A DNA stretch of 64,000 bases from NCBI GenBank assembly GCA_021378525.1, contig JAACJW010000001.1, positions 10,115-74,114 of the forward strand, in the 5' to 3' direction. Made by a program: the position numbers and the translations under genes. This document shows, piece after piece, positions 4,976-54,713 of the stretch. Origin of the DNA: Ureaplasma sp. Hg2 (GTDB taxonomy: Bacteria > Bacillota_I > Bacilli_A > Mycoplasmatales > Mycoplasmoidaceae). The notes beneath the pieces were generated by a model. That model was not told where the DNA came from. It saw only the letters and a program-made list of their open reading frames with translations, and made no database searches. Numbering within the stretch: the first letter of the stretch is position 1; every line of letters starts with the position of its first letter.

Positions 4976-5014
4976 TTTAGAAACGTCAAATTAGACAAAA
5001 CCAAACTATTTTTT
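4967..5014. terminator. Hairpin between convergent genes
   Basis: The aaaaatagttt (4967-4977) and aaactattttt (5004-5014) arms flank a large (26-nt) loop. Confidence 0.35.
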
Positions 5015-5053
5015 ATATTTTAAACGATTTGCAAAACCCATGTCTCACTCTTC

Positions 5054-6871
5054 TCACTCTTCTAGTTTTTCAACGATTGCTTCGTCTTCGTCATCTTCAG
5101 CACCTAGTTGCTTCAAAATGCTAGCGTATTTTTTAGTTGGAACATTATCATCTTCTGGATTAAATAATGGCAGGTTATCAATTGCGTCATAATCCACATT
5201 TTGAGGAATAATTATTGGCTTTATTTGAGTATTTTTTTCATATTCCATAGCGTTGTCAATAGCATCGTAATCCACATTTTGAGGAATAATTATCGGTTTT
5301 ATTTGATCGTTTTTTTCATATTCCATAGCGTTGTCAATAGCATCATAATCCACATTTTGAGGAATAATTATTGGCTTTATTTGAGCGGTTTTTTCATATT
5401 CCATAACATCATCAATAGCAACTTTATCAGGCCCTAATGGAGCGGGTTCGTAATCCTCTCATGTTCTTTTTTGAGAATCATAGGTGTCAATTTTAATGAT
5501 TGTTTCATCTATGTTTTCATTCTCATTGTAATAAGGAATTTTTACTTTTGCTTCAATGGTATCTTCCCTAGATATGGTTATTGGTTTAACCTGAGTAGCT
5601 TCTTCATATTCTGCTCAATCTTCGTTGATAATCTTTTTTGGTTCCGATGAAACCGGTTCATAGGCATCACTTATTTTTTGATTAAAGTCATACGCATCTA
5701 TTTCGACAACAGCTTGATCAATATCTTCTTCATCTTTATAATAAGGTAATTCTACCTTTGGTGCAACGGTTTCAATAATAACTTCATCATCAATGTCCCT
5801 ATCGTTAATTGTTTGAATATTTTCTTCTAGTTTTTCTACTTCAGGTCCATCATCAAAAATGTTGTAAAGAGAATCAATTTTTTCTAGTAATGATTTTTCA
5901 GGTTTGATTGGTTCTTTTCTTTGGATTCTTATCTTAGGAATGGGTTCAACATTTACTTCAGGTAATGGAGAAAATTCTTCACTTAATTTACTTAATAGGG
6001 TGTCATTACTCGCAACTTTTGCTTTATTGTATTTTATATCTATAGTTTCACCAGAATGAATAAATTCCTTCACCGTTTTATAGTAATGACTTGGCTCTTC
6101 TTCTCAACAATAATGACCAGAGTGAGAAAATTGAACGATTTGGTCTGAGTTAACCCTTTTCGATAAATAACGCTTTATTTTTCAGTAAGGCATCAAATTA
6201 TTATGGTTACCTAAAATAATTAAGACATTTTCATCTAACCCATTATATAAAGACGAAGCGTTAATTAGATTTCTTAATTTCAAATTGTTATTCATTAATT
6301 CTAAATAAACTTCGCGATTATTAACAATGTTATATAGTTCTCGTTTTTTTTCTTCAATTCATAAACGATTTTTAAGATTTGGTCCAACCCGGTAACTCAG
6401 TGCAGCTTCACGATCCATCAAACCCCTAAATGAATTAGGTAAATAAATAGATTTAAAAAATAGTGAACAATAAAATAAATGCGGTGTGTAAGGAGAAATC
6501 AATATAAGGTTACTAACCGCTTTCGGCGATAAATAACGCACCATCATAGCGGCGAGAGCGCCCATTCCATGCCCAATTAAAACAACATTTTCAAGATTGT
6601 GATCAAAAATAAATTGATCAATATATTGAGCGTAATAAGTGATTTTTAATTCTTCTGAATTATTGTAAGGCGTTACCCCGTGCCCAGGTAAATCAATACC
6701 ATAATAATCAAAACCCACAAATCGATCTGCGAACATATTAGAATATTTTTCAGCGGATTTAGCAAAATCATGAATATATATAATATTCCCCTTTACATTA
6801 TCTCATTTTTGCTTATTACGGTATATTGTGGTTTCATCCCAATTTATTAATAATTTATTTTCGCCAATCAT
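5054..6871 (-). CDS. Alpha/beta-hydrolase-fold protein with ~330-aa acidic repeat-bearing C-terminal extension, 605 aa
   Basis: ATG 6869-6871 is preceded by GAGGT. MIGENKLLINWDETTIYRNKQKWDNVKGNIIYIHDF..DLPGHGVTP..LIGHGMGALA..FSHSGHYCWEEEP is an alpha/beta hydrolase layout. I translated every codon across 5405-5614 and 6074-6358. ORFs 6359-6736, 5615-6073 and 5054-5404 are one frame joined only by TGA. Confidence 0.8.
5171..5404 (-). repeat. 3 x 78-bp in-frame tandem repeat (26-aa unit MEYEKxxQIKPIIIPQNVDYDAIDNA)
   Basis: Three near-identical consecutive 26-aa units are visible in ORF 5054-5404. The DNA units are nearly identical. More diverged related units (PYYN/KxExxID...IDxYD) lie upstream to about 5760. 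Confidence 0.9.
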
Positions 6872-33892: not shown

Positions 33893-33927
33893 AAATAAAT
33901 TCACATTATAGTGAATTTATTTTTTTA
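33893..33927. terminator. Bidirectional hairpin terminator
   Basis: aaataaattcac/gtgaatttattt plus a T-run. The stop codon of the convergent reductase gene lies within it. Confidence 0.65.
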
Positions 33928-34869
33928 TTTATATTTAATAATTTTTTGTTTAATTGCTCAAACAGCAGTTGTAACCTCTGCGGTTCCGATACAAATTAAA
34001 TTAGGGCGTTGTTTTTTATAAACGATATTACCCGCAGCATAAACTCCGGGAATCGATGTCTCGTTATCCTCGTTAACTAAAACTCGATTTAATTTTTTTT
34101 CTAATATTGAAAATTGGGAAATCGATTTTGGATTTATAGTTTGTCCATATTGGACAATGCCAATATCATAATTAATATTAGACTTATCATTGGATTGATT
34201 ATTAACTAGGGTAATTTTGGTGTCATTCATTGTTTCGATACTACTATCCATATATTGTTTAACGCCGTTAGTAGTTAGAGCGATAACGTTAGCACCGATA
34301 GCTCTAAAGGCATCGCGGCGATGAACAATGGCAACGCTTTTAGGTGAACAAAATTCACTAATATGATTGGCAATGTCGACGGCTGAATCTCCGCCACCAA
34401 AAATTACCACATTCTTATTCTGATAATGCTTATTGTTTTTTAAATTATACTCCAAATTACTTTCCTTAAATAATTTGTTTGCTTGCACAATCGTTAATTT
34501 GTTATGAATAAATTGACCGATACCAGTTGATATAACAATGAATTTTGTTTGTAGCTTTTTTTGATTAGCTAATTCAATGCTGAAACCAGTGTCATTTTTT
34601 TCAAACGAAGTAACTGTACTATTTAAAAAGATATCATGTTTGTCGGGGTATTGATCCATTTGATCGAGATACTTTTTAGTAAGATCACTTGCTACAATGT
34701 CCTTAAAACCAGGGATGTCATACAGATGTTTTTGACTATAGAGAGACATTGGTTGCCCCCCAAGATAGCCAGAAGCTTCAATTATTGCGGTTTTAAAACC
34801 CCAATGATTAGCTATAAAATTGCCAACTAAACCAGTTGGTCCGCCACCAATAAAAATAATATCATACAT
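33925..34869 (-). CDS. Thioredoxin-reductase-like flavoprotein lacking the CxxC centre (ferredoxin/flavodoxin-NADP+ reductase type), 314 aa
   Basis: MYDIIFIGGGPTGL is the FAD GxGxxG motif and VVIFGGGDSAVD is the NADPH site. No CxxC appears anywhere in the translation. Start set at ATG 34867-34869 behind GAGGT. One TGA extends the tail to TAA 33925-33927. Confidence 0.75.
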
Positions 34870-35153: not shown

Positions 35154-35636
35154 ATGGCAGAAAATAAATTATTAAAAGAAAACATTGTATACATTGATGA
35201 AAACGATGCTAAAACAATTGGAATCGTTGAAGGCGAACAACAATCAGTTTTTATCGATGGTAAAAATGTAGATGTTGTTTTCGTCGATGAACACGATATT
35301 TTACCAACAACTAAAAAGGAAAAAGATATAATTCAAGAAGCAAGTGAATTGGCTATCAACCGTAAAGAAGATGAACATCTAGAAGAACGCGCTTTAGCTG
35401 TACGTTCAGGTAAAACGTATAATCTTTGAGAAAACATTAAGGAATTCTTTGCTGGTGCCGCGTCTAATATTATCAATTATTTTAAAAACTTATTCAACGG
35501 TACTAAAAAATTCGATGGAACGGATGTTTTCACTGACGAGGAAATTAGAATTATTGAAGAAGTTATTTCAGAAGTTAAAGCAAATAAGGATGAACCATCA
35601 TCTGACGGCGTTGATTTAGCTGTAAACACTTATTAA
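35154..35636 (+). CDS. Acidic hypothetical protein, 160 aa
   Basis: AAGGA RBS. ORF 35154-35429 continues through one TGA to TAA 35634-35636. Confidence 0.6.
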
Positions 35637-36533: not shown

Positions 36534-36545
36534 AAAATAATAGAA

Positions 36546-36578
36546 AATGCACTTAATCAATTAAGTACATTTTTTTTA
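36546..36578 (+). terminator. Rho-independent terminator
   Basis: aatgcacttaat..attaagtacatt hairpin plus T7. Confidence 0.65.
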
Positions 36579-37574
36579 CTCATTATATTTATGGATTACT
36601 AAAATAAGCACAATTCCCTTGGCGTATTTTAAATATTTAATGAAAGTTTATAATTAATATATTTTTAATATATTTTTGTTGAAATAAAATTTAAATTTTA
36701 AAAACTTTATGAGTTCGCTTGGCACGCATGATTTATAAAGGTGATATTATTTACATTCATTAATAAATTAAAGTTTAACGAAAATAGCTAATAGGATTTG
36801 AATATTAAATAAGATTAAAAGTAAGTATTTTTGGACGATTATTTAAGTGTTTATTATAAGGGCTTTATACCCGCCTCAATAATTGCAAATTTAAATTACC
36901 TTGTGTTTTTTATATTCATAATTTTTTATTTGAACTATAACTATCGTGTTAGTTACGATATTTTTCTTATTTCTTAAGGAAAGTGAAACCAAAATTTTAT
37001 GATTGTTTTTAATAACAATGAAAATATATAGGAAGAACTCGGGACATACTTGTGGATTTTTTAATTAGATAATGACTGATATAAAATCTCTTATATAAAA
37101 CCGGGTTTTAACCATCCTATAATTGGGGTACTTCATTTTTTTATCTTTCTATTACATTAAAAATCAAGTGAAATAATGCTTATTTAATTATATGCAAATT
37201 ATTTTTCCATTTTTACTTATTACGTTAAATATATTTTAATGGATTGAGATTACAACGAAATATACAAGCATCAACGAGATGTTACGGTGCCTTCTTTGTG
37301 ATAAACGTTAGAGTGCGAAGCCTCAATTAAAATGTTGATTGCATTTCAACTTAACCAATAATCAGTGTAACTTTATTACTAAAGTTACTTAGCAAATTAT
37401 TTTAGTACTTACTATCTCACTTAATTATTCGCAACCGGTTGCAACTATAATTGAATCGATATTTTAATATACGGCGTATCAAAAAATATCTTTTAAAATT
37501 ATTTTTTGATACTAATTTTTGAACTAAAAAACTTTTATATAGTTAGCATTTAATTCCTTAAATGAAAATTTCTA

Positions 37575-37871
37575 ATGGGAGATCTTGAAGTGCGACTATT
37601 TAAAAAACAAGTATATACCTTTTGATGAATATTTATGATTCCATTAATTTGAATATATGGAATTTATGAGTCGTGCATTATTCTAAATTCACAATTGCAA
37701 AGGGCAATTAAATCTAGAAAAATACTATTTATTACTTACAATATCATACATATATGGAAACAAATTAAAGTTGAATTAATATTTGAAATCATTTATATAT
37801 TTTGCATCACCATTGATTTGGTGATACCTATAAAATTAAACATTAAAAATGTGACTTATTATTACTATTAA
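37575..37871 (+). CDS. Possible small hydrophobic protein (two predicted TM helices), 98 aa
   Basis: This is the only long TAA/TAG-free stretch I found on the + strand when scanning all three frames of 36541-37575 and reading on to 37871. MGDLEVRLFKKQVYTFWWIFMIPLIWIYGIYESCIIL...ELIFEIIYIFCITIDLVIPIK. Three in-frame TGA. No convincing RBS. Confidence 0.35.
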
Positions 37872-38274
37872 AATGATTTTTTAAATATATTTTTTCGGAT
37901 TTATTAAGTTTCATCAGAAAGAGCCAATTTAAATAATTGGCTTAGAATTTAATTTTCTATGAATTATAAAACCAATAAAACACGGATAATATTGCATAAA
38001 TTAGTAGTTTTACTTATTTTTCATTAATATCACAAATTAATAATTAATTATATAAATACCAATATATTCGCTATTTTATATCACTTTAACAAGCTCTTTA
38101 AAAATATTTCATTATTTTTGGTATAAATTCTTTTTAGGTATTCCATCCTTTGTTATAATTATTATGTAATATATATTAATTTATGCAATTTAGTTAATCG
38201 TTGTAAACGGTTCAGATTTCATTGTTTGAATTTAATTGTAATTTACTCTTACAGAATTAATTGAGGACATAAAA

Positions 38275-41200
38275 ATGGCAAAATACGATGATATAGTTAA
38301 CCGGGATTTTAGTAAAGAAATAAAAGCTCCATCAACAGTTGAATTAACTAAAAATGTTGATAATTTTGGCGTTACATTAAAACTTAAGGAAGACGTTCTT
38401 TTGAATTTAACAAAAACGCCAGAAGGGAAAATGTACGTTGATCAAGACAAAAGTAGTTTTTGGGGAATAAATCCAATGTATAGCTTTGGAGAAACGGCTC
38501 CTGAAAACAATGTCGATAAAATCAACGTTATTAAACATTACGATTCTAGAGAAGACCTTCGCACCTTAAATTTGCTACGTGCGCAAGCAAACAAAATTAT
38601 CAACGAAGCAAAAGCTGAGTACAAGAAAAAATCTTTACACGCCAAATTGTTAAGTGAAAAAAGCATTACTTTCGCTGAGGTTAAAGCTAGCCATTTATTG
38701 TCTAAAGCAAAAGGGATTGAAATAACTTATGTTGATCGTCAAAACGAGGAAGTGCGCAAACAAGAAGCTTTGCTTTTAATCGATGATTGAAAAACTAAGG
38801 CTGTTGAAAATAATTCTACACGTTTAGAATATTTAACTCAAAGAGAAGAACGTTCACATGAAAAATTAAAAGGCCACGAAATGAACAATAGAGCTATCGC
38901 AGAAGAGAGATTGCACGAACGTGAAATCTTTGCCCAAATTCATTTAGAATGAGAAAAGGAAAAGGCCGCTACATTGGCCCAAGGAATGCATTTTAATGTT
39001 CCACCTCCAGTTCGTAGAAAATTTTTAGGAACCAGAAACAATTACCAAGATGAATTAAAATATTCTACAATAAATGAACGCAAAGAAGACCGGGTAATCA
39101 ACTTATTAAATAACAAAGAAGATATTAATGGGGTAGACTTTATTGAGTCAACCAAACGTGGAAATGCACTAAATAAATTTACTAAGTTTACTAAAGATCC
39201 AAAAACACATGCATTAGAAAATAGAATTGAAACTACAACTGAACGCAATCTACATGTTTATATTGTTGATGAAGATGTGTATGAAAGCCAACTTAGAAAA
39301 AATAATTATATAGATGCGAAGAAAGAACGCTTTGAAATTATGGTCGATGCTCGTATGTATGCCCCATTCAAGGAATATCTTCATGTTGAATGAAATGATG
39401 AAAATGGCAACGATGAAATCAAATATCAAAATCAAAAAAAATTAGCTAAGGTACGTAGTGATTCGGATGATGTGCAACGTTATTACTTGGACAAAGAGGC
39501 TAGAGAACAAGCCTTACGTAGTCGTAATGAAAACGCGGTCGAAAGAGAACCATCATATTATTCTGTAGAAGATTGATCAGATAATGATTATATTAATGGC
39601 CAATCGCAAGATGGCGCGCTTAAGCGTTGATTTAAATCGAGAAAAGACCGAACCCGTGAACAGGAATTGGATTTTGAAAAAACTGATTTTAATGAAACAA
39701 TCGATAATAGTAACGACATATATTTAAATGATGAAAACGAAATAAACGAATTAAAATTATATTTAGCTAAAAATCAAAATTACATTGACCTTTATGATGG
39801 GCAACTTTTTGACCGAAATCGTTTAGTCAATGACGAACATTATGTTTCTATCGATTATATTATTCCATTAGAATTAAGTGGCGATGATTCAATTAGCAAC
39901 AAGATTTTAACTAAATCCGAACTTCATTATAGCAAAGGTGATTTAACGCCGTTTGAATGAATGGATGATGAAAATTTTGATTTATTTTATGAAGAAGTAA
40001 CAAAATTGTTAAAAAATAGAGGACGAGAAAATAAGAAACGTTTAAGAAACCTTACTTTTATAAATAACGTGAAACAAGAAAGTTATATTAATGATAACGA
40101 TGAAGACTTCCAAGGGTATGAACAATATGACGACGAAGAATATTATCGTGAAAGTTCTCGTGATCAATATAAAATACAAAAAGCCAATGTTCTTTTAAGA
40201 AAACTTCCTATTCATCCGATTATTCATGATGAACCATCAAAATTATTGCAAAGTGGAATCCGAACAACGGATGCCATTAGAGCTTTCCAACGTTTGAATG
40301 CTGATGAAATTTATTATGACAAAGAAAAACAAATAATTTTAAATAAATTAAAATATGTTTGCGATGAAAATAGAAGACAGGAAAATTCTTTTAGACACAA
40401 TCAAGAAAAATCTAAACAATTAGATGACTATGTTAAGGTTAAGGCTGATGAGCTAAAAGCAAATTTTGTTTCAAGTAAAACTAGACTATCGACCAAGAAT
40501 TTCAATAAGGATCAAAAAATAGATGAACGCTATCGTAATATTTCTGAAACCTTATTTGAAAAATTCTCTATCGAACGTCAAATGATTGATGAAAAGGAAG
40601 AAAACCTTCATAATCGTGAGGAAGCACTTGAAATTCGGAATGAAGCGATAACTAAAGAAAGAGTTTTGAGTCATTTAGAAAAAGTTAACACACGAGAAAT
40701 TAAAACACTTCACCGTTTGAAAACTAAATTAGAGCAATATAATCGTAAATATGATTTTGATATTCCAGTAGATGATTTTCCTTTTGTGAACACTTTATCG
40801 CAAGCCGGTGGTGAAAAATATTTAAACCTAAAAAAAATAAATGATAAATTAGTGCTACAATGAATTTCTGAAGAAACTAAATATCGTGAAAACGATGAAG
40901 ACGAAGAAATTGATATTAAAGCAGATAGCGCAGTTTCTTTAATGGGAAAGGCTTCGAAAATTATTGACACCTTTAAAGTAGGGACAGTAGATAATAAAGT
41001 TGAAATCATTAACGATTCTTTACCTAGTGATGTTACTAAAATAGTGATTCTAGAAAAATATAGACATAAGGATGAAATTGAACAAATCGAATATTTAAGA
41101 ACCTTAGCTAGATCAATGGTTTCAGAAGTCGCAGACGTTGCACTTTTGCAGGAAGCTAGAATTGTCGAGGAAGCTCATATTGTTTTGGAAGAAGAACTTG

Positions 41201-42321
41201 AAGAAGCAAAAAAATATTTAGACAAATGTGAAGTCATTGAGAAAATGATTGACCGTCGCAAAAGTTTCTATGACAAAAGTTTGAAAGAGGCTTGAAACGA
41301 TAAACGTGATAAAGAACGTGAATGGAATCGAATTGTTAAGTCTGAAAAAATTGAAAATGCGCGACGTACAAATGCATTGAGAAAACAAGCTCAAGCTGAT
41401 TTACGAGCACAACTTCATGATTCTTTAGGAGAAGATGGGTTGAATCATAAACTTCCTATTAATATGCAAAACGAATTTAAACATTCACCAGAAGCTATTA
41501 AAATTAATCAAAGACGAATTCGTATGTTGGAACAAGATTTAAATATGCCAATTTTACGCGAGAGTGAACAAGATAAAAAACGTAAACGGATCCAAGGATT
41601 TGAAACACCTACTACAACAAGTCAAAAAGTGGGCAAATACTTCGGAATGATGAAGGAAAAGTTCATTGAAGCGTCCGCTGATGCAGAACCTAATATTGAC
41701 GAATTAATTGGAACAAAGGAAAAATTAAGATTAACTTCACAAGAAGAAACAAATGTTAATCAAAACATTAAAGATGTTGAATATTCAGAAATGACTAATT
41801 CCTTTGAGGGCCATCCTATTCCCACGACAACATTAATTAATAATGAATACAAAAACCAGGTTATAAATAATAGTCAATATGAATCTGATGAAAACCAAAG
41901 TGAAATCGAAAATGATGTTTTTGTTCCAACACCTATTATGGTGGGAGCTAGCGAAGATAACCCTATTGATGTGCAATTTAGTGCGCCTAGAGAGGCTTTT
42001 ACATCAGATATTAATTTGACGTCCCAAATTGAACCCGACGTTGTTGTTGATCCATTAACGATTCCAGCATCTGGCGATTATAACAGTGGCGCTGAAACTC
42101 CGATTGAACAATTATTAACAAATTGAGAAAAAGAAGCTGATGAAATTTCTAAATCATTAGACGACTTGAGTAATGATTGGGATAACGGCGTTAAGCAAAA
42201 GAAAGTTGTGCAAGCGAAACATGACCAAACCCAGAAGATGAATGATGTAGATTTTAAAAGTAAAACCATGGATGAATTAGAGGAAGAAGAACTAATTGAT
42301 AAAAGTATTTTAAATCACTAG
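38275..42321 (+). CDS. Giant highly charged protein with central Cas9-type HNH-like module (His->Tyr), 1,348 aa
   Basis: Six track ORFs (38275, 38974, 39667, 39961, 40942, 41377) are all in frame 1. All gaps were hand-translated. Nine in-frame TGA and no TAA or TAG until TAG 42319-42321. GAGGA RBS before ATG 38275. The HNH-like segment is at 39751-40059. Confidence 0.85.
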
Positions 42322-42380: not shown

Positions 42381-43481
42381 ATGAAATTAAAGTTTGTAAT
42401 GCCTGAAGAAATAATGATAGGCAACAAAACGATTATAAATATGAAATCACGGATTGACGGATCCGGTTTTAATAATGTTCTATTTTTAGTTTCTACAGAC
42501 TTTGAAAAAAATGCATATTTGAAAAAAACTTTCAACAAGTATAAGAATAAACTCATCATTTGGATCGACCCTCGTACATTAGAGGAAGATGTTATATCTA
42601 AAATTACTGAAGATTTAGATACCAAACATATTGAATTTGCATTTATCATTGGTAATAGTCATATAGTTAATGTAGCGAAAATATCACTCTTGGCGCATAT
42701 TAATAACATTAATAACGTCTATGGTGATTGCAATGGTGAAATGTTTGATAGAACCATTCCTTTTGCTGTTGTTGCCTCAGAACCATACGATGCATCAGGC
42801 GCTTCTAATTGCGTTAAATTAATTCACAATAAACGTCTATTTTCTTATTATAGCGACGCCTTCGTTCCGCGATATTTCATTGTTGATTTTAATATTATAT
42901 TGATTCAAAATCATGGGGCATTTAAAAATTACTTATTATCTAAAATTATTATTGGCTTAGATATGTATTTTTTAGATAAAAAAAATATACTTGGGAGTTG
43001 TTTTTCTTTAGGGGCAGTGGAAATGATTTACCATGAGGCTCAAAACATGATTACTAATGAAGCTAGCTATGAAACATTGGCAATTTTGGCTCACGCGGAT
43101 TATTCGTTAGTTATGGCAGAAAATATGTTACGGCAAAACAACCGTATTACTATTCGAGAGAGCATCGAATATTTATATCGTAATTTAAACATTAAAGATA
43201 TCCCGTTGGATTTAGTAATTTCGTCTCTTTGCTTTAATGTTTTGACATATTATAACAATAAAGATGAAAACTTTGATATAGTTGCAAAAAAGTTATTTCT
43301 TAATTTTAATATTAATAGTTATGAGGAAGTAACTAAGGCTTTAGAGATATGATGTCGCAAATTTAATATCAAAACTGATTCAATGTGTTGGCTCACTGAA
43401 ACGGATTGACATATTCTTTATGAGGCAATTAATAGTCACAGAGATAAGAAAATAATAAAAGAGCTAAGAAATATTTTGTAG
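42381..43481 (+). CDS. Fe-ADH-fold protein with degenerate cofactor motif (probable pseudoenzyme), 366 aa
   Basis: GGAGGG RBS before ATG 42381 (MKLKFVMPEEIMIGNKTII...). The length and layout match group III ADH, but GGGSxxDxAK reads IIGNSHIVNVAK. The tail extends through two TGA to TAG 43479-43481. Confidence 0.65.
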
Positions 43482-43488
43482 GTGAATT

Positions 43489-44772
43489 ATGTTATATAAA
43501 AATTACAACAGTTCAGCGTTACGTTTTTGATGCTGACAAAAGATATCGTTATTAAATCAAAAAACAAATAAATATTCTAAAAATTTGCCATTACTTTTTT
43601 ACGATCCTAAATTATCTATAATCCAAATGCCTCCGCTTACATTGATGGGGAATTATGCTTTAGAAGAACTTGGTCCGGAATTGAGCCAATTAGGTGCAAG
43701 TAAAATATTAATTATTACAGATAAAAATTTATCACTATCTCCAATATTCAAAAGACTTATTGGAACACTTGATAAATGACATATTAATTATATTTTATTT
43801 GATGAAGTTATTGCAAATCCAACGATTGAAATTGTAAATCTAATCAAAATTAATTTTATAAAACAAAAATGTAATTATTTAGTTTCATTCGGGGGTGGTT
43901 CCGCGCACGACGCCGCTAAAGCTGCCGCTATTATTATCTCTAATAATATATCAGATTTACGAGGGATAGATAAACTTAAGTTTCCTCCGGTTGGGGTTGT
44001 TTGTGTTAATACTACCACCGGAACAGGCTCGGAGGCTAATAGCATAAGTATAATAACTGATGAAAAAAAATCTATTAAAGTTACTAGTGTCGATAAGTTT
44101 AATATTCCAATTTTAACAATTTCTGATCCAAGTTTAACAATTTCACAAGCCCCGAATGTAACTGCCAACGGTGGAATGAATATTTTGGCTTTGGCAATAG
44201 AAGCGTATTTATCGCCTTACCACAAACCTATAACCGATATTCTAGCTACTAGATGCATTGAGTTAATAGGTTTAAATTTGGTTAATTCATATGAATCATT
44301 AAAAAATAATGAATATCGCTCCAATCTAATTACCGCTTCATATATGGTCGGTTTAGCTCATGGTGGTGCGGGTTCAGGATATGTCGATGCAATAAGTAAT
44401 GCGATAAGTGGCTCCTACAATACCGCTCATGGAGTTGCAAGTGCGATTTTATTACCTTACATTATTAGTTTTTTGGGGCAAGATAAAGGAATAGCTAAAC
44501 GAATCAATAAAATAAATTATGCACTAAACAACCGGCCTTATAATGCCAATGATAAACAGGCTGTTGTTGATTGCGCGCGTTCTATTTTCGAATTAAATTA
44601 TAAATTAAAAATACCTAATACATTAAAAGGGATAAACGTTACGCCCGACAACTTTAAAAAATTAAGTAAAAAAGTAATGAATGACTATGCTTTAACGAGT
44701 AGTCCTAAGCGGTTTTCCAAAAAAGAAATTATTAGTATTTTAGAGCATGCTTATAGTGGAAAATTATTTTAA
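43489..44772 (+). CDS. Fe-ADH-family protein with substituted metal ligands, 427 aa (or ~395 aa from TTG 43585)
   Basis: GGGSAHDAAKAAA is intact. Where FucO-type enzymes have GMDALTHAIEGY, this protein has GGMNILALAIEAY. The downstream region is AISNAISGSYNTAHGVASAILLP. ORFs 43585 and 44176 are in the same frame as an upstream ATG at 43489 (AGGTGA RBS). Confidence 0.75.
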
Positions 44773-49619: not shown

Positions 49620-52600
49620 ATGGGTAGAATTTTATTAGAATTACGAACAATTTATAAGACATATGAACTTGAAAATAAAGAAGTAAAAGTCTTAAATAAT
49701 ATTAATTTGGATGTTGAAGAACACATTTCTTTAGCTATTTTAGGAAATATAGACAGTGGTAAAACATCGTTGATTAAAATAATGGCTCGATTTTTCGAAC
49801 CAACTTTTGGTGAGGTAGAATTGTTTCCAATCAATAAAGTTCAACCAGAACTTACAAATAGTATTTTTCATGAAACGTCACCAATTGAGATAAACCGACA
49901 TAAGTTAGCACCAGAAACAACTGTTGATGAGATGATAAAGCTTATTGACGAATCAAGAAAATTTCCTGCTGAAAAAAAGGAAATGGCAAAACTTATAGAA
50001 GTCAGTGGTATCCCAGCAATCGGAACTAAAACATTAGAAGAATTAGAAGGCTCGGATTACAAAAAAGTTAAATTAATTTCAATTTTGGCTAACAAAGCAC
50101 CAATTGCTTTTTTAGATGATGTAGGAAGTGCTTTTAAATATAGCGAAAAAATCAAATTTAACATTGAAATGGGCGAATATATTAGAAAACATAAAATGAC
50201 TATAATCATGACAGCAAATGATCCCGAAGAGGTTGTTGATTTATGTGATGAATTTATAATCCTAGGAAAAGGAAAAATTGCAGCATTCGGTGACGTAGAA
50301 GTCCCTGAAGGCTTCGAGGATTTTTCAGAGTGCGTTAGTAAATGAGTTGAAGTTGGAAAAGTTGAAAGTCACGACAATGTGATCACATGATTCAAAAATT
50401 TATTTAATTCAAACAAGAAAATACTTGAAGAACGTCGTTTACGTGATGCAGCTAAAAATCAATTATTACTACCCGGTGGAGAACCGATGGAAGTTCCAGA
50501 TGCAATGGTGATTGAAACTGCTGAATTCGAAGATGATGAAGCAACATATGAAAAACCGGAACATAAATCTTTCCTTAGCCGTAAACGCGCTAAACAAGAA
50601 GAGTATGAAGATGAAGAAGACGAAGAAGACGATTCTCAAAATACCGGAATAGAGACAAACAATAAAGAACGCCGTAGCCAAATGGATATCATGAAAAAAA
50701 TGGAGGCTTTCGAAGTAGAGGAAAACGATACAAAAGGCCATGATGCCTTCAGCAAGAGAGCAAAAGAAATCGAACAAACCGATGATGAAGCTGGCAAAAG
50801 AAAAGAACGTGCTGCAAGATTAGCCCGAATCCAAGCAATCGAAGGAAAAAATGCTCCCCAAACAAATAATGATTCTAGCGGCGAAACCCCTGAACAAAGA
50901 CTAGCAAAACGAAAAGAATTATTAGAACGCATGAAATCCAAAGAAAATAATCCAAGTGTTACTGATACAGAAGCTTATGAATCAGAAACCCCGGCACAAA
51001 GACTAGCAAAACGAAAAGAAATGTTAGAACGTATTAAGGCCAAAGAAAAAGGCGTGGAAGTTTCTAGTGGAACCGATGCAGATTCAGGTCCAGAAACACC
51101 AGAACAAAGACTAGCAAAACGAAGAGAAATGTTAGAACGCATTAAAGCAAAAAAAGAAGGCAGAACTTTAGTTTCTGATAACGAAGCGGATGATTCAGTT
51201 TCAGCTAATGAATTGCATTCAGTTGATGAAACAGATTCAGCGATAGCAAACTTTGATTCAGAAACACCAGAACAAAGACTAGCAAAACGAAAAGAAATGT
51301 TAGAGCGTATGAAAGCCAAGGAAAAAGAAGGGGATACCCCTCCTGAAGTTGAAACTCAAACAAGTGAGAGTGAAGCTCCAATGATAGAAGAAACCGAAAT
51401 TGGTGATAAGAAGAATTTATCTCCATCAGAACAAAGACTAGCAAAACGAAGAGAAATGTTGGAACGCATTAAAGAAAAGCAAGCCAACATGAAAATTGAA
51501 GAAGTTGAAACTTCTAAAAAACATGTAGTTTTAAGTGCTGCTGCTGCTGAGCGTAAAAGTAAGTTAGAAGCTATTAAAGCACAACAATCTAAAAAATCAA
51601 CAATTCAAATAAAACTTGAAAAAGCCAAAGCTAGAAAAGAAGCAGAAACTTTAGCTGAAACTAATGCAGCTAAGGAAAAAGCGACTTTTGTTGCTGCAAA
51701 AGCGGAAGCCATTCTAGAAAGTGAAAAAACTAAGGAATCTTTAGCAAATGTTCATGAAGTTAAAACAGTTGAACTTAAAACTAATAATCAAGTTGATTCT
51801 TCTACAAGCGAACGAGCAGAAAGATTGGCTCGAATCCAAGCAAAAGAAGGATCTTTGGCTCCGCAAACTTCAGTTAAATTCGAAAAACCAGTTTCAACAA
51901 CACCGTCAACGCCAACACTTAAATCAAGTGCATCAATTGAACGTGCTGAAAAATTAGCACGCATTAAAGCCAAACAACAATCTATTGCAAAAGTAAAAGC
52001 TTCTAATGAAGAAACAAAACCAATTGCTACACCTACTTTAACTACTTCTACTCCAGTTGCACCAAAACCAGTTATAGATAAACCAGCTGCACCAAAAACA
52101 ATTATAGCTAAACCAATTATAGCTAACCCAGTTGCACCAAAACCAGTTCCAGTTGCACCAAAACCAATTATAACTAAACCAGTTGCACCAAAACCAATTA
52201 TAGCTAAACCAGTTGCACCAAAACCAGTTATAGATAAACCAGTTACACCGACTATAACTACACCAACTACGCCCACTGTTAATAAAACAGCACTTGCTGA
52301 GCGAGCGGAAAGATTGGCTAGAATTCAAGCTAAAGAAAATGCGGTACCAAAAAGCGAAACTGTAATTAAAGATGTTGAAATAACTAAAATTACAAAAACA
52401 GTACCACCTAAAAATATCGAAGTCAAACAACCCACTCCAGCATACAACTCGGACGCAAAAGCGGCAGCTCGAAAAGCAATGCTAGATCGTGTTAAAGCAC
52501 AACAAAATGTTGATGTCAAAAATGATGTTAAATCACAAAATGCAATGGCAATGATTGAACGCATTAAGGCAAGAGAAGGAAAACTTGAAATCGATAAAAC

Positions 52601-54713
52601 CACCGAACCTCGTAAGCCTCTTTCGATAGAAAGACAAAAACAAAACATCGAACGTATTGCAGCAATGGGTAAACGGAATAGTGATTTTAACGAAATAGAT
52701 CATATCAAAATCGAACGTGAACGTGAAAACCGTTTAACAAAAGCAGAAAACGAAGTTGAAGAAATAATTAAATCATCAAGTGTTCAAAGAGTGAATGCAA
52801 GCGCAACACAAGCGCAACACGCTGAGCAATTAAGAATTCAAATGCAAGAATTAGAGCAATTAAAAAGAAAACAACTTGAGATAGCTAAACAAAAATCTGA
52901 AATTCAAAGATTAGCACAAGAAGCTGAAATGGCAAAATTGCGTCAAATAAATAATAGCAAACTTCGAAAAGCCGAAATAACTAATGAAAAAGTATTATTA
53001 GACCAAGAAGAGTTAGCGCGTAATTTAAATCTTAGAGCTCAGGAAATTGAAGATAGAGCAAGAGTCGAATTGAATCGAATTGAAAAGGAACATGCAAATA
53101 AAATTGCTGTTTTACAAAATCGTTTAGACGAAGAAGAACGTCTTCGCAAAATAAAGGATCAAGATGCTCAATTAACACTAGATTCAGCGATAAAACAAGC
53201 CGAACTTGTTGCCACAAGAATCGCAACAGAAAAATCTGTTGAAGAAAAAAGTACGAGAGAAACCCAATTAGCTAATCAAATATTAGAAATAGAAAAAATT
53301 GTTAAACAAATGGAAATTTCATCAGGGGCTAAAAACGAAGAACTAATGCAAAATGCGATAGAAATGAAATATAAAGTTTTACATCAACAAGAATTAGCTT
53401 CTAGAGCTGCTAAAGATGTGGAAATTGCGAATCAAAAATTAGCAAAACAAGAAAAAGTTGCACAAGATTTGCGTGACCAGGCTGAACGCACTAGAAGATA
53501 CAAGATGCAAGTGGAACACCAAAATAACATAAATTATAAAAACACCAATGTTAGCGGTTTAAATGAAATTAAATTACAAAAAAATAGAATCGAAAGAATG
53601 TCTGGCGATATTCAAGAGATTAAAAATTTAATTAGAGAAAGTATTGCAAGCGGAGACGCTCAAGCAATGCATCGTTTAAATTCTTTGGTTACAGATTCTG
53701 GGTCAGGAAGAAATCTAAATCCCTCTCAAATTGTAGTGGGGCGTAACCCCGGCGCATCACCACGTCCTGGGATTAATTATAATTTAAAACCAGCTTCGCA
53801 ATTTACACCAGGTGCGCAAGCTACTAAAGTAGTTGGCACAAACGGAGTTGTGATGTCCAATGTAGTGCAAACATCTCCTAATTACAAAGCGCCAGCAAAT
53901 CAATTGATGGTACGAGGCGGAGTTAGTAGTAGAGAATATTTGATGGGAATAGATAAGCAAATTTGAGAATCAGAGCAACGATTAACCGAATTGAGAATGT
54001 TAAAACATCACGAAGCCGAAGTTGTAATTCAAAGAAAAATTGAAGCTGAACGTCAAAAAATGCAAGCAGATAGATTACATCTTGAAGAACAAGAAATGAT
54101 TAACGAAAGAAAATATCTTCATGACCAACAAAATGCTTATTTACAAAATAAAGCAGCATCACGTTATTATGATCAAAGTGTTTCTAATGCTTCATATTAT
54201 CCAAAACGTAAACCAATGCAATATACAGCTGGCGAAAGGGAAGCGATTCAATCTAACAAATCTGGAGATATTAACGCATATGAATATGGTCGACAAATAA
54301 AGCAAACCACACCATATAGAGCAACGCCCGTGAATCAACAAGCACCTTATTCTCAACAACGTGTTAGTCAATCTGCGCAACGTTTAAGTCAAGCGTTCCG
54401 CGAAGCTAATAGACCATTTGATTATGAAGATGGTCCTTACCAACAACAAAGGGCGAATAATAATTATAATCAATACCCTAATGGGGAGCGAGACTATGTC
54501 GAACTAAGTCACAACGAAGTTAATAATTTACAATCTGATTCATTTTATTCTAACCAAAATGCGCCCTATAATTATAGACCTGAAGCACCTTCTTATAGAA
54601 ATGCATTCTTGCAAGATAATAGACAGCCTAACAATGCTGATCGGAACGGAAATCCACAAAATCAAAGCAACAACAGATTGCCAAATGGATATTTAGGAAA
54701 GAAAAAATATTAG
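49620..54713 (+). CDS. Giant fusion of a degenerate ABC-type ATPase domain, a repeat/coiled-coil region, a Pro/Lys block and a Q/N/Y-rich tail, 1,697 aa
   Basis: ORFs 49620, 50487 and 53991 are all in frame 0, and the gaps hold only TGA (hand-checked). Walker A is GNIDSGKTS (49743-49769). Walker B-like IAFLDD (50103-50120) is followed by VG, not E. Confidence 0.85.
50800..52675 (+). repeat. About a dozen dispersed copies of an amphipathic ~17-20-aa motif (TPEQRLAKRKEMLERIKAKE / ERAERLARIQAKE)
   Basis: Five copies are near-identical at the DNA level (~55 nt each, starting near 50883, 50985, 51093, 51261 and 51424). The others have diverged (e.g. near 51810, 51935, 52290, 52460, 52545 and 52625). 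Confidence 0.85.
52053..52250 (+). repeat. Pro/Lys-rich short-period repeat block (KPVAPKP[IV]I[AT/D] x ~8)
   Basis: PVAPKPVIDKPAAPKTIIAKPIIANPVAPKPVPVAPKPIITKPVAPKPIIAKPVAPKPVIDKPVTP, with repeated ccaaaacca units. Confidence 0.9.

Follow-up and report, generated by a model that had tools for sequence, protein, structure and literature searches.

How does the HNH module of a CRISPR nuclease come to lie in a protein that otherwise has nothing of Cas9, and does it still work there? The question is raised by a gene of Ureaplasma sp. Hg2 found in a stretch of 64,000 nucleotides (contig JAACJW010000001.1, positions 10,115 to 74,114 of the forward strand), hereafter called the window. The window is mollicute DNA with ~30% GC, in which TGA codes for Trp. 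The gene, at 38275-42321 on the plus strand, is a single open reading frame (ORF) of 1,348 residues under genetic code 4, with nine in-frame TGA codons and three TGG codons. From the sequence alone, an original prediction had described residues 493-595, encoded by bases 39751-40059, as a Cas9-type HNH module with a Tyr at the catalytic His; re-translation with code 4 gave back exactly these coordinates, an identical peptide and the intact frame with its nine TGA-Trp codons. We consider it probable that a Cas9 cassette made of the L1 linker, the HNH domain and the L2 linker was grafted into a mollicute scaffold protein with long helices, the ancestral form and that of Ureaplasma sp. Hg1 being a working nuclease and the window copy being crippled.

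Nature and limits of the HNH module

In Pfam, the full protein matches HNH_4 (PF13395) and no other family, with 28.6 bits for a gathering score of 22 (E=1.4e-6); with the segment alone the score is 33.8 bits (E=3e-8), and the curated threshold is passed. In NCBIfam, residues 456-606 align with positions 529-673 of the Cas9 model TIGR01865 (E=1.4e-20), the score of 73 bits lying below the cut-off of 100 and stemming from this single stretch; the one further match is Cas9d. Phmmer searches of the PDB sequences retrieved Cas9 chains only, with HpaCas9 at the top (8hnt, E=9e-12) and compact type II-C and short II-A enzymes ranking above SpCas9. A custom hidden Markov model (HMM) built from 68 full-length Cas9 proteins matches residues 451-607 with 100 bits (E=3e-32).

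The AlphaFold model of the protein, built from a hybrid alignment, has predicted local distance difference test (pLDDT) values of 93-98 across residues ~486-600, with a predicted beta-beta-alpha arrangement (strands 524-528 and 543-547, helix 548-554). All 50 Foldseek matches to the PDB at E<=0.001 are Cas9 HNH domains, and the predicted domain aligns with that of GeoCas9 (8f43) over 102 columns with a template modelling (TM) score of 0.80 and a root-mean-square deviation (rmsd) of 1.9 A. The best phage HNH fold in BFVD reached E=5e-3 versus 4e-7 for Cas9 HNH, about four orders of magnitude worse. The best PHROG match had E=0.37, and neither the window protein nor its orthologue, described below, matched a PADLOC defence model at E<=1. 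An origin of the HNH from a phage or homing endonuclease was rejected on the basis of HNH_4 being the sole Pfam match, the weak PHROG match and BFVD values of E>=5e-3. A defence or phage origin was also rejected, as no relatives of the scaffold turned up in viral contigs, in metagenome contigs or in collections of phages and plasmids, all of which gave only weak matches limited to the HNH. The module is a Cas9-type HNH, with a similarity far beyond chance, and not a Zn-finger, phage or IscB-type domain. Its assignment in the original prediction is thus borne out by Pfam, TIGR01865, phmmer and Foldseek, with no better match to a non-Cas9 HNH family.

In Cas9, the L1-HNH-L2 unit is an insertion inside RuvC. 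Residues 451-607 cover positions 507-662 of the custom Cas9 profile: the match begins directly behind the RuvC-II motif (consensus IHIELARDL, positions 497-505) and stops directly before RNLNDTRY (662-669), which introduces RuvC-III. Therefore, the protein harbours a complete L1-HNH-L2 cassette and no RuvC residue. Outside residues 451-607 the Cas9 profile gave only scores of <=0 with segments out of order, and no segment scored above 0 for RuvC motifs I, II or III on the full-length HMM. No profile match was obtained for the Arg-rich bridge helix, the REC lobe or the PAM (protospacer adjacent motif)-interacting (PI) domain, and Foldseek aligns the HNH part of Cas9 alone. The cassette is flanked not by RuvC-II and RuvC-III but by scaffold sequence homologous to HNH-less proteins.

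Six-frame translations with code 4 of the window and of the 24-kb orthologous locus revealed no second Cas9-like segment. Searches for tandem and interspaced repeats found no CRISPR-like repeats, and no Rfam family was matched, either by the window at gathering thresholds or by the upstream spacer when the thresholds were permissive. Neither the window nor the 24-kb orthologous locus contains cas1, cas2, csn2, a CRISPR array or a tracrRNA. The absence of RuvC motifs, bridge helix, cas genes and array, already reported from the sequence, therefore held in the Cas9 profile, six-frame, repeat and Rfam searches, and no RuvC, REC or PI part of a complete Cas9 could be recovered from the flanks.

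These results bear on the idea that the gene is a cas9 that has diverged or is decaying, with its other lobes no longer recognisable. The length of 1,348 residues is Cas9-like, and so, roughly, is the position of the HNH. Nevertheless, the full-length profile matches residues 451-607 alone, the flanking parts have HNH-less homologues whose synteny is conserved, and the model consists of three ~140-residue helices with no RuvC, REC or PI folds. Purifying selection acts throughout, and there are no cas genes, array or tracrRNA-like family. We regard a decaying cas9 as scarcely credible: the six-frame translations and the profile of full-length Cas9 proteins effectively refute it.

The recipient protein and the source of the cassette

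A word-indexed search of 5.8e9 proteins identified one orthologue, P0002, a protein of 1,351 residues with 77% identity, encoded in a metagenome-assembled genome of Ureaplasma sp. Hg1 at a locus with the same gene order as in the window. The same type of search with the HNH fragment alone retrieved nothing, not even the fragment itself, which is a limitation of the tool; with the family alignment it returned the two orthologues only. We also ran an exhaustive phmmer search of 1.84e9 cluster representatives with residues 1-1195 (the C-terminal 153 residues being excluded). Among its 122 matches, 119 are Cas9 proteins or Cas9 fragments that align to the cassette only. The other three, P0003, P0004 and P0056, called at 941-955 residues, align to the non-HNH parts only (residues 20-307 and 635-989), with E values down to 9e-15. 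These HNH-less homologues are ~940-1,160 residues long and are encoded on code-4 contigs with TGA as Trp. The P0004 gene (locus L003, 21-3500, plus strand) had been called as three genes; with two in-frame TGA codons read through, it forms one ORF of 1,159 residues. The label of orphan given to the window protein thus has to be dropped.

In a five-way alignment, residues ~455-630 of the window protein are an insertion relative to P0003, P0004 and P0056, and the flanks share the motifs YV(I/V)DED-Y, LPxxPxIxxEP, PVDxxPFxNT and (I/V)VLEKY(R/K). The protein can be laid out as follows (all features on the plus strand).

38275-42321 (+): whole gene, a scaffold protein with a Cas9-derived cassette; ORF and translation with code 4, with P0002 as the syntenic orthologue

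38014-38274 (+): conserved upstream region, putative promoter and 5' leader; 78% identity over 274 nucleotides with the region upstream of the orthologue

38275-39624 (+): N-terminal half of the scaffold, residues 1-450, common to the HNH-less homologues; phmmer and blastp matches of residues 20-363 to P0003, P0056 and the L003 ORF, no Pfam family

38545-38979 (+): first very long helix, residues 91-235, assigned by DSSP on the AlphaFold model; pLDDT above 90 at residues ~91-170, counterpart of helix 111-255 of P0056

39625-40095 (+): Cas9-derived L1 linker-HNH-L2 linker cassette, residues 451-607, an insertion relative to the scaffold homologues; custom Cas9 HMM, TIGR01865, gap in P0003, P0004 and P0056

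39730-40074 (+): HNH beta-beta-alpha-metal core and following helices, residues 486-600; pLDDT, Foldseek and the selection estimates given below

40096-40164 (+): acidic low-confidence linker behind the cassette, residues 608-630; composition, pLDDT below 50 at residues 600-625

40165-41430 (+): C-terminal half of the scaffold, residues 631-1052, with long helices 683-826 and 934-1052 and conserved motifs LPxxPxIxxEP, PVDxxPFxNT and VLEKYR; models, and homology to P0004 (residues 635-989, E=2.6e-14), P0003 and P0056

41431-42318 (+): C-terminal extension, residues 1053-1348, mostly acidic and of low confidence (pLDDT below 50 from residue 1107), with a conserved tail; absent or unalignable in the HNH-less homologues, and with the lowest identity to the orthologue (53-64%)

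The AlphaFold models of the two kinds of protein are laid out alike, both being predictions of low confidence outside the HNH and the long helices. In P0056, long helices at 111-255, 590-735 and 812-950 leave a low-confidence middle part (349-536); in the window protein the helices are at 91-235, 683-826 and 934-1052, and the cassette lies within the low-confidence middle. In the L003 homologue P0004, the place of the cassette is taken by Lys/Ala/Pro-rich repeats (AKPAAAKP...), and the protein has Lys/Thr-rich tails. We take these repeats to resemble those of the histone-H1/AlgP type, which is only a hint that the variable centre might contact nucleic acid.

For the scaffold, we found no Pfam or NCBIfam family (four family members), no PADLOC or PHROG family and no relative in PDB profile searches, and Foldseek gave no significant fold match for the HNH-free model. 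A long coiled coil of the SMC/Rad50 type was considered and rejected, with no Pfam or PDB sequence match, a best fold match to Smc5/6 at E=3.7 and no heptad periodicity. The part outside the HNH had earlier been described as coiled coil or disordered. Long helices and low-confidence stretches are indeed present in the model, but the heptad periodicity test on the long helices was negative, so that a coiled coil is unproven. The alignments indicate that the host scaffold is a real, lineage-restricted mollicute family.

Four scaffold lineages are known, three without and one with the HNH. An HNH ancestral to the family and lost elsewhere, or one acquired from a source other than Cas9 such as IscB or a phage homing endonuclease, would be compatible with so few lineages, among which no rooted tree settles gain versus loss. 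Against it, the L1 and L2 flanks are specific to Cas9 and end exactly at the RuvC junctions, the best families are Cas9 and Cas9d rather than generic HNH, phage folds score some four orders of magnitude worse, and three HNH-less lineages stand against a single HNH-bearing one. We hold this origin to be very improbable. The proposal that a Cas9 HNH was exapted in a new context is strengthened by the discovery of a recipient scaffold family and of exact cassette boundaries.

Among Cas9 cassettes, the nearest by score and by distance is that of P0005/P0126 (35% identity), a Cas9 of 1,239 residues. Its gene has nine in-frame TGA codons on a contig with 27% GC; therefore, it is a mollicute Cas9. 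The cassette of the window protein is a long branch, with a median distance to Cas9 cassettes of 1.88 versus 1.45 among Cas9 cassettes. In neighbour-joining (NJ) analyses, for which some saturated distances were undefined, the enclosing clades look like Cas9 proteins of low-GC, mollicute-like organisms. Type II is the dominant CRISPR type in Mycoplasmatota (PMC12669027). Given this dominance and the nearest cassette, our best guess is that a mollicute type II cas9 was most likely the donor.

State of the catalytic site and selection on the gene

In SpCas9, D839 and N863 are Mg ligands and H840 is the general base (PMC6706240). We compared the catalytic residues of the window protein and of P0002 with those of 122 Cas9 cassettes.

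39853-39858 (+): position of the catalytic dyad, Asp527 (GAT) and Tyr528 (TAT) by codon alignment, Asp-His (GAT CAT) in Cas9 and the orthologue. Residue 527 corresponds to SpCas9 D839 and is Asp in 118 of the 122 Cas9 cassettes and in P0002. Residue 528 (39856-39858) corresponds to SpCas9 H840 and is His in 120 and Tyr in 2 of the 122, and His (CAT) in P0002

39898-39900 (+): Asn542 (AAC), the invariant structural Asn of the DDSxxNK motif (SpCas9 N854), Asn in all 122 Cas9 cassettes and in both orthologues

39925-39927 (+): His551 (CAT) at the site of the metal-binding Asn of Cas9 (SpCas9 N863), Asn in 120 of the 122 Cas9 cassettes and His in none; His in P0002 as well

Thus, the Asp-His dyad is replaced by Asp527-Tyr528 in the window copy and kept in the orthologue, and the codon alignment confirms the Tyr codon (TAT, one nucleotide from CAT) that had been reported at the general-base position. 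With Cas9 as the outgroup, the His-to-Tyr change is inferred to be a derived, single C-to-T change in the window lineage only. The second change reported earlier, a His at the later Asn position, is likewise present, but it does not look like a defect: it is shared with the orthologue and is not degeneration-like. His is a classical HNH metal ligand, and sequence comparison identifies the Asn-to-His change as a shared derived one that gives the classical H-N-H ligand set. The two Cas9 cassettes with Tyr belong to P0025 (1,010 residues) and P0058 (929 residues); both are Cas9 proteins complete in every other respect, in which Tyr has taken the place of the catalytic His (e.g. AEVDYILPW). P0025 and P0058 are perhaps Cas9 variants whose HNH is naturally inactive.

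The Nei-Gojobori ratio of non-synonymous to synonymous divergence (omega) between the window gene and its orthologue is 0.086 over the whole gene, at a synonymous divergence (dS) of ~1.6, which is saturated. The HNH (residues 486-600) is among the most constrained parts, with an omega of 0.03, and even the C-terminal extension has a value of ~0.16. When the 16 differences within the cassette were polarised with Cas9 as the outgroup, 4 were derived in the window lineage, 3 in the orthologue and 9 were ambiguous. There is no sign of accelerated decay following the Tyr change. These values indicate a gene under strong purifying selection and not a dead cas9, as the original prediction had argued from the intact frame. 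Two independent assemblies carry the chimaera, which is thus not an assembly artefact. The low omega and the lack of accelerated change suggest an old chimaera that is made as a protein and is, in some sense at least, functional; the sequences also place the insertion before the split from Ureaplasma sp. Hg1.

How, then, should the Tyr be read? With the protein seen on a single draft contig, an error or a polymorphism is another possible source of the Tyr codon. Were this a sequencing or assembly error, or a strain polymorphism, the protein would be a normal HNH nuclease with its Asp-His dyad. The TAT and CAT codons differ by a single base, the contig is a draft and the protein occurs once in the collection, and the rest of the cassette exhibits no relaxed constraint. 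Conversely, nothing visible points to poor sequence quality, the frame runs unbroken for 4 kb, and a C-to-T change is in the expected direction for an AT-rich genome, which makes a real substitution equally plausible. We consider an error or polymorphism to be quite improbable.

A weightier alternative is that proposed in the original prediction, namely that the HNH is a nuclease-dead relic serving as a nucleic-acid- or protein-binding module, here taken as a property of the whole family. It would account for the missing general-base His of the window protein, for a metal-site change from Asn to His that never occurs in Cas9, and for an omega of 0.03 with no acceleration in the Tyr lineage, which fits a function independent of the His. 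Two natural Cas9 proteins also have Tyr at this position. Nevertheless, the orthologue retains the Asp-His dyad in spite of saturated dS, and the retention of D527, N542 and H551 in both proteins is the pattern of a selected catalytic site. As the only orthologue keeps His (CAT), loss of nuclease activity is not a property of the family and can apply at most to the window lineage. A family-wide relic therefore seems to us rather unlikely. For the window protein itself, by analogy with H840 mutants, Tyr528 most likely entails strongly reduced catalysis, and this copy may act as a binding module. A role in binding only is possible for this copy, but another reading suits the family better.

The grafting of a Cas9 cassette into a long-helix scaffold, which we favour, can be spelled out as follows. 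The predicted scaffold would consist of three charged helices of ~120-145 residues parted by low-confidence stretches. A complete Cas9 HNH insertion cassette would have entered the central one of these stretches, with no RuvC, REC or PI parts. In Cas9, L1 and L2 are the hinges on which the HNH moves towards the target strand; the tethered HNH would similarly hang in the flexible centre of the scaffold. With its Asp-His dyad, structural Asn and His ligand, the protein of the ancestor and of Ureaplasma sp. Hg1 is predicted to be a guide-independent, metal-dependent nuclease or nickase, whose substrate would be chosen and positioned by the scaffold or by partners. In the window lineage, a single C-to-T change would then have turned the His into Tyr, leaving a copy that is probably catalytically crippled and that keeps nucleic-acid binding or works much more slowly.

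Several points weigh against this scenario. None of the 122 Cas9 cassettes has a His where Cas9 has its metal-binding Asn, and the catalytic compatibility of His551 rests on analogy with classical HNH enzymes. Taken by itself, the HNH of Cas9 needs the remainder of the protein to dock onto its substrate, so that activity in another setting is not assured, and the scaffold has no recognisable family or fold to explain substrate choice. The NJ analyses single out no sister group of the cassette among Cas9 HNH domains. Lastly, the chimaera is present in two genomes only, and a pairwise omega is no proof of continued constraint on the Tyr lineage.

As a tentative extension, the family might represent a new guide-independent nuclease machine, in which a conserved mollicute protein with long helices, possibly associated with the nucleoid, domesticated a Cas9 HNH tethered by L1 and L2 for use in DNA maintenance or in defence, with Tyr528 as a natural variant of the catalytic site. 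If true, this would be the first documented export of the Cas9 catalytic module to a non-CRISPR host protein. A more speculative proposal is that the HNH module serves as a decoy for anti-CRISPR proteins that bind HNH.

Neighbouring genes and known systems

Upstream of the scaffold gene, two genes recur in other loci of the family.

33925-34869 (-): divergent Pyr_redox_2 (thioredoxin-reductase-like) gene that anchors the synteny, with counterparts at the same relative position in loci L004 and L005 (35% identity, E=8.5e-47)

35154-35636 (+): ORF of 160 residues that accompanies the scaffold gene wherever upstream DNA exists, 96% identical in Hg1, with 35-42% identical homologues in L004-L007

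In L004-L007, the homologues of the 160-residue ORF lie directly upstream of the HNH-less scaffold genes (E=1e-19 to 1e-25). In the comparison with Hg1, this ORF is far better kept (96% identity) than the scaffold gene with its cassette (77%) or the Pyr_redox_2 gene (69%). Pfam searches with it gave sub-threshold matches only. It is a candidate functional partner of the scaffold protein.

The non-coding spacer at 36534-38274 measures 1.74 kb, against 420 bp for its counterpart in the orthologous locus, a difference of about 1.3 kb, and conservation with the orthologue (78%) is confined to the final ~260 bp. The spacer contains a hydrophobic ORF of 98 residues (37575-37871) with no family match, and it matches nothing in Rfam. 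It resembles DNA that was inserted or has decayed in this lineage rather than a partner RNA. Two genes on the plus strand adjoin the scaffold gene downstream (42381-43481 and 43489-44772), both kept in the orthologous locus. They had been described as two degenerate genes of the Fe-ADH fold. This suits the first, whose weak match (E=0.006, below the cut-off) suggests a degenerate Fe-ADH paralogue, but not the second, a clear Fe-ADH (E=1e-36 to 1e-40). Further away, a gene at 49620-54713 on the plus strand codes for a protein of 1,697 residues with an ABC-transporter ATPase-like N-terminus, an annotation borrowed from the Pfam ABC_tran match of the gene at the orthologous locus; the protein continues as long charged repeats, with ETPEQRLAKRKEMLERIKAKE units and PVAPKP repeats with a 15-nucleotide period. 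At 5174-5407 on the minus strand, three tandem 78-nucleotide repeats, 88-91% identical, lie within a minus-strand ORF of 621 residues (5006-6871).

Among known systems, the HNH domains of Cas9 (Nme1Cas9, GeoCas9, SaCas9, HpaCas9 and the uncultured mollicute P0005/P0126) share with the window protein the fold, the L1 and L2 linkers and the cysteine-free DDSxxNK motif, with 30-35% identity, TM scores of 0.6-0.8 and an rmsd of ~2 A over ~100 residues. In contrast with Cas9, the HNH of the window protein is not inside RuvC and comes with no REC lobe, bridge helix, PI domain, guide RNA, cas genes or array, and it has His in place of the metal-binding Asn and Tyr in place of the general-base His. 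P0025 and P0058 have the same His-to-Tyr change but differ in that their RuvC motifs are present and their metal position is Asn. The window protein is neither a Cas9 nor an IscB, nor is it a phage HNH protein or a known defence protein; by analogy, it would work most like a Cas9 HNH without Cas9.

The searchable literature yielded no description of a non-CRISPR protein with a Cas9 HNH cassette, and the other detectable relatives among the 1.84e9 representatives include no second such chimaera. The scope is narrow, with two genomes known to carry it. Still, the L1-HNH-L2 unit would behave in nature as a portable module, a point of interest for the engineering of Cas9 domains. The Asp-His and Asp-Tyr forms, both with the Asn-to-His change, make a natural pair for testing a Cas9 HNH without the guide complex. 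The cassette also offers a first clue to function, namely nucleic acid, for a family that is specific to mollicutes and otherwise unannotated.

IscB/OMEGA nucleases, the ancestors of Cas9, are unlinked to CRISPR (PMC4810608, PMC9581776). Like the window protein, IscB has a Cas9-like HNH and no cas neighbours or array. It differs by its split RuvC, Arg-rich bridge helix and omega-RNA, all three absent from the window protein, for which the NCBIfam match is to Cas9 proper. An IscB/OMEGA identity was accordingly rejected: there is no RuvC or bridge helix and no structured RNA family upstream, where the spacer is mostly unconserved.

The HNH traffic described so far has been into CRISPR, from IsrB to IscB and Cas9 and in HNH-Cascade variants. 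The closest conceptual parallel to the window protein is the fusion of HNH to the class 1 effector subunits of the variants I-E2, I-F4 and IV-A2, yielding Cas5-HNH, Cas8f-HNH and CasDinG-HNH (PMC12669027). In both cases the HNH sits on a non-nuclease carrier, which in the fusions supplies the targeting. Nevertheless, the class 1 carriers are RNA-guided Cas proteins in CRISPR loci into which an HNH moved, whereas here a CRISPR HNH appears to have moved out, as a cassette cut at the exact RuvC junctions and placed in an unrelated protein under purifying selection.

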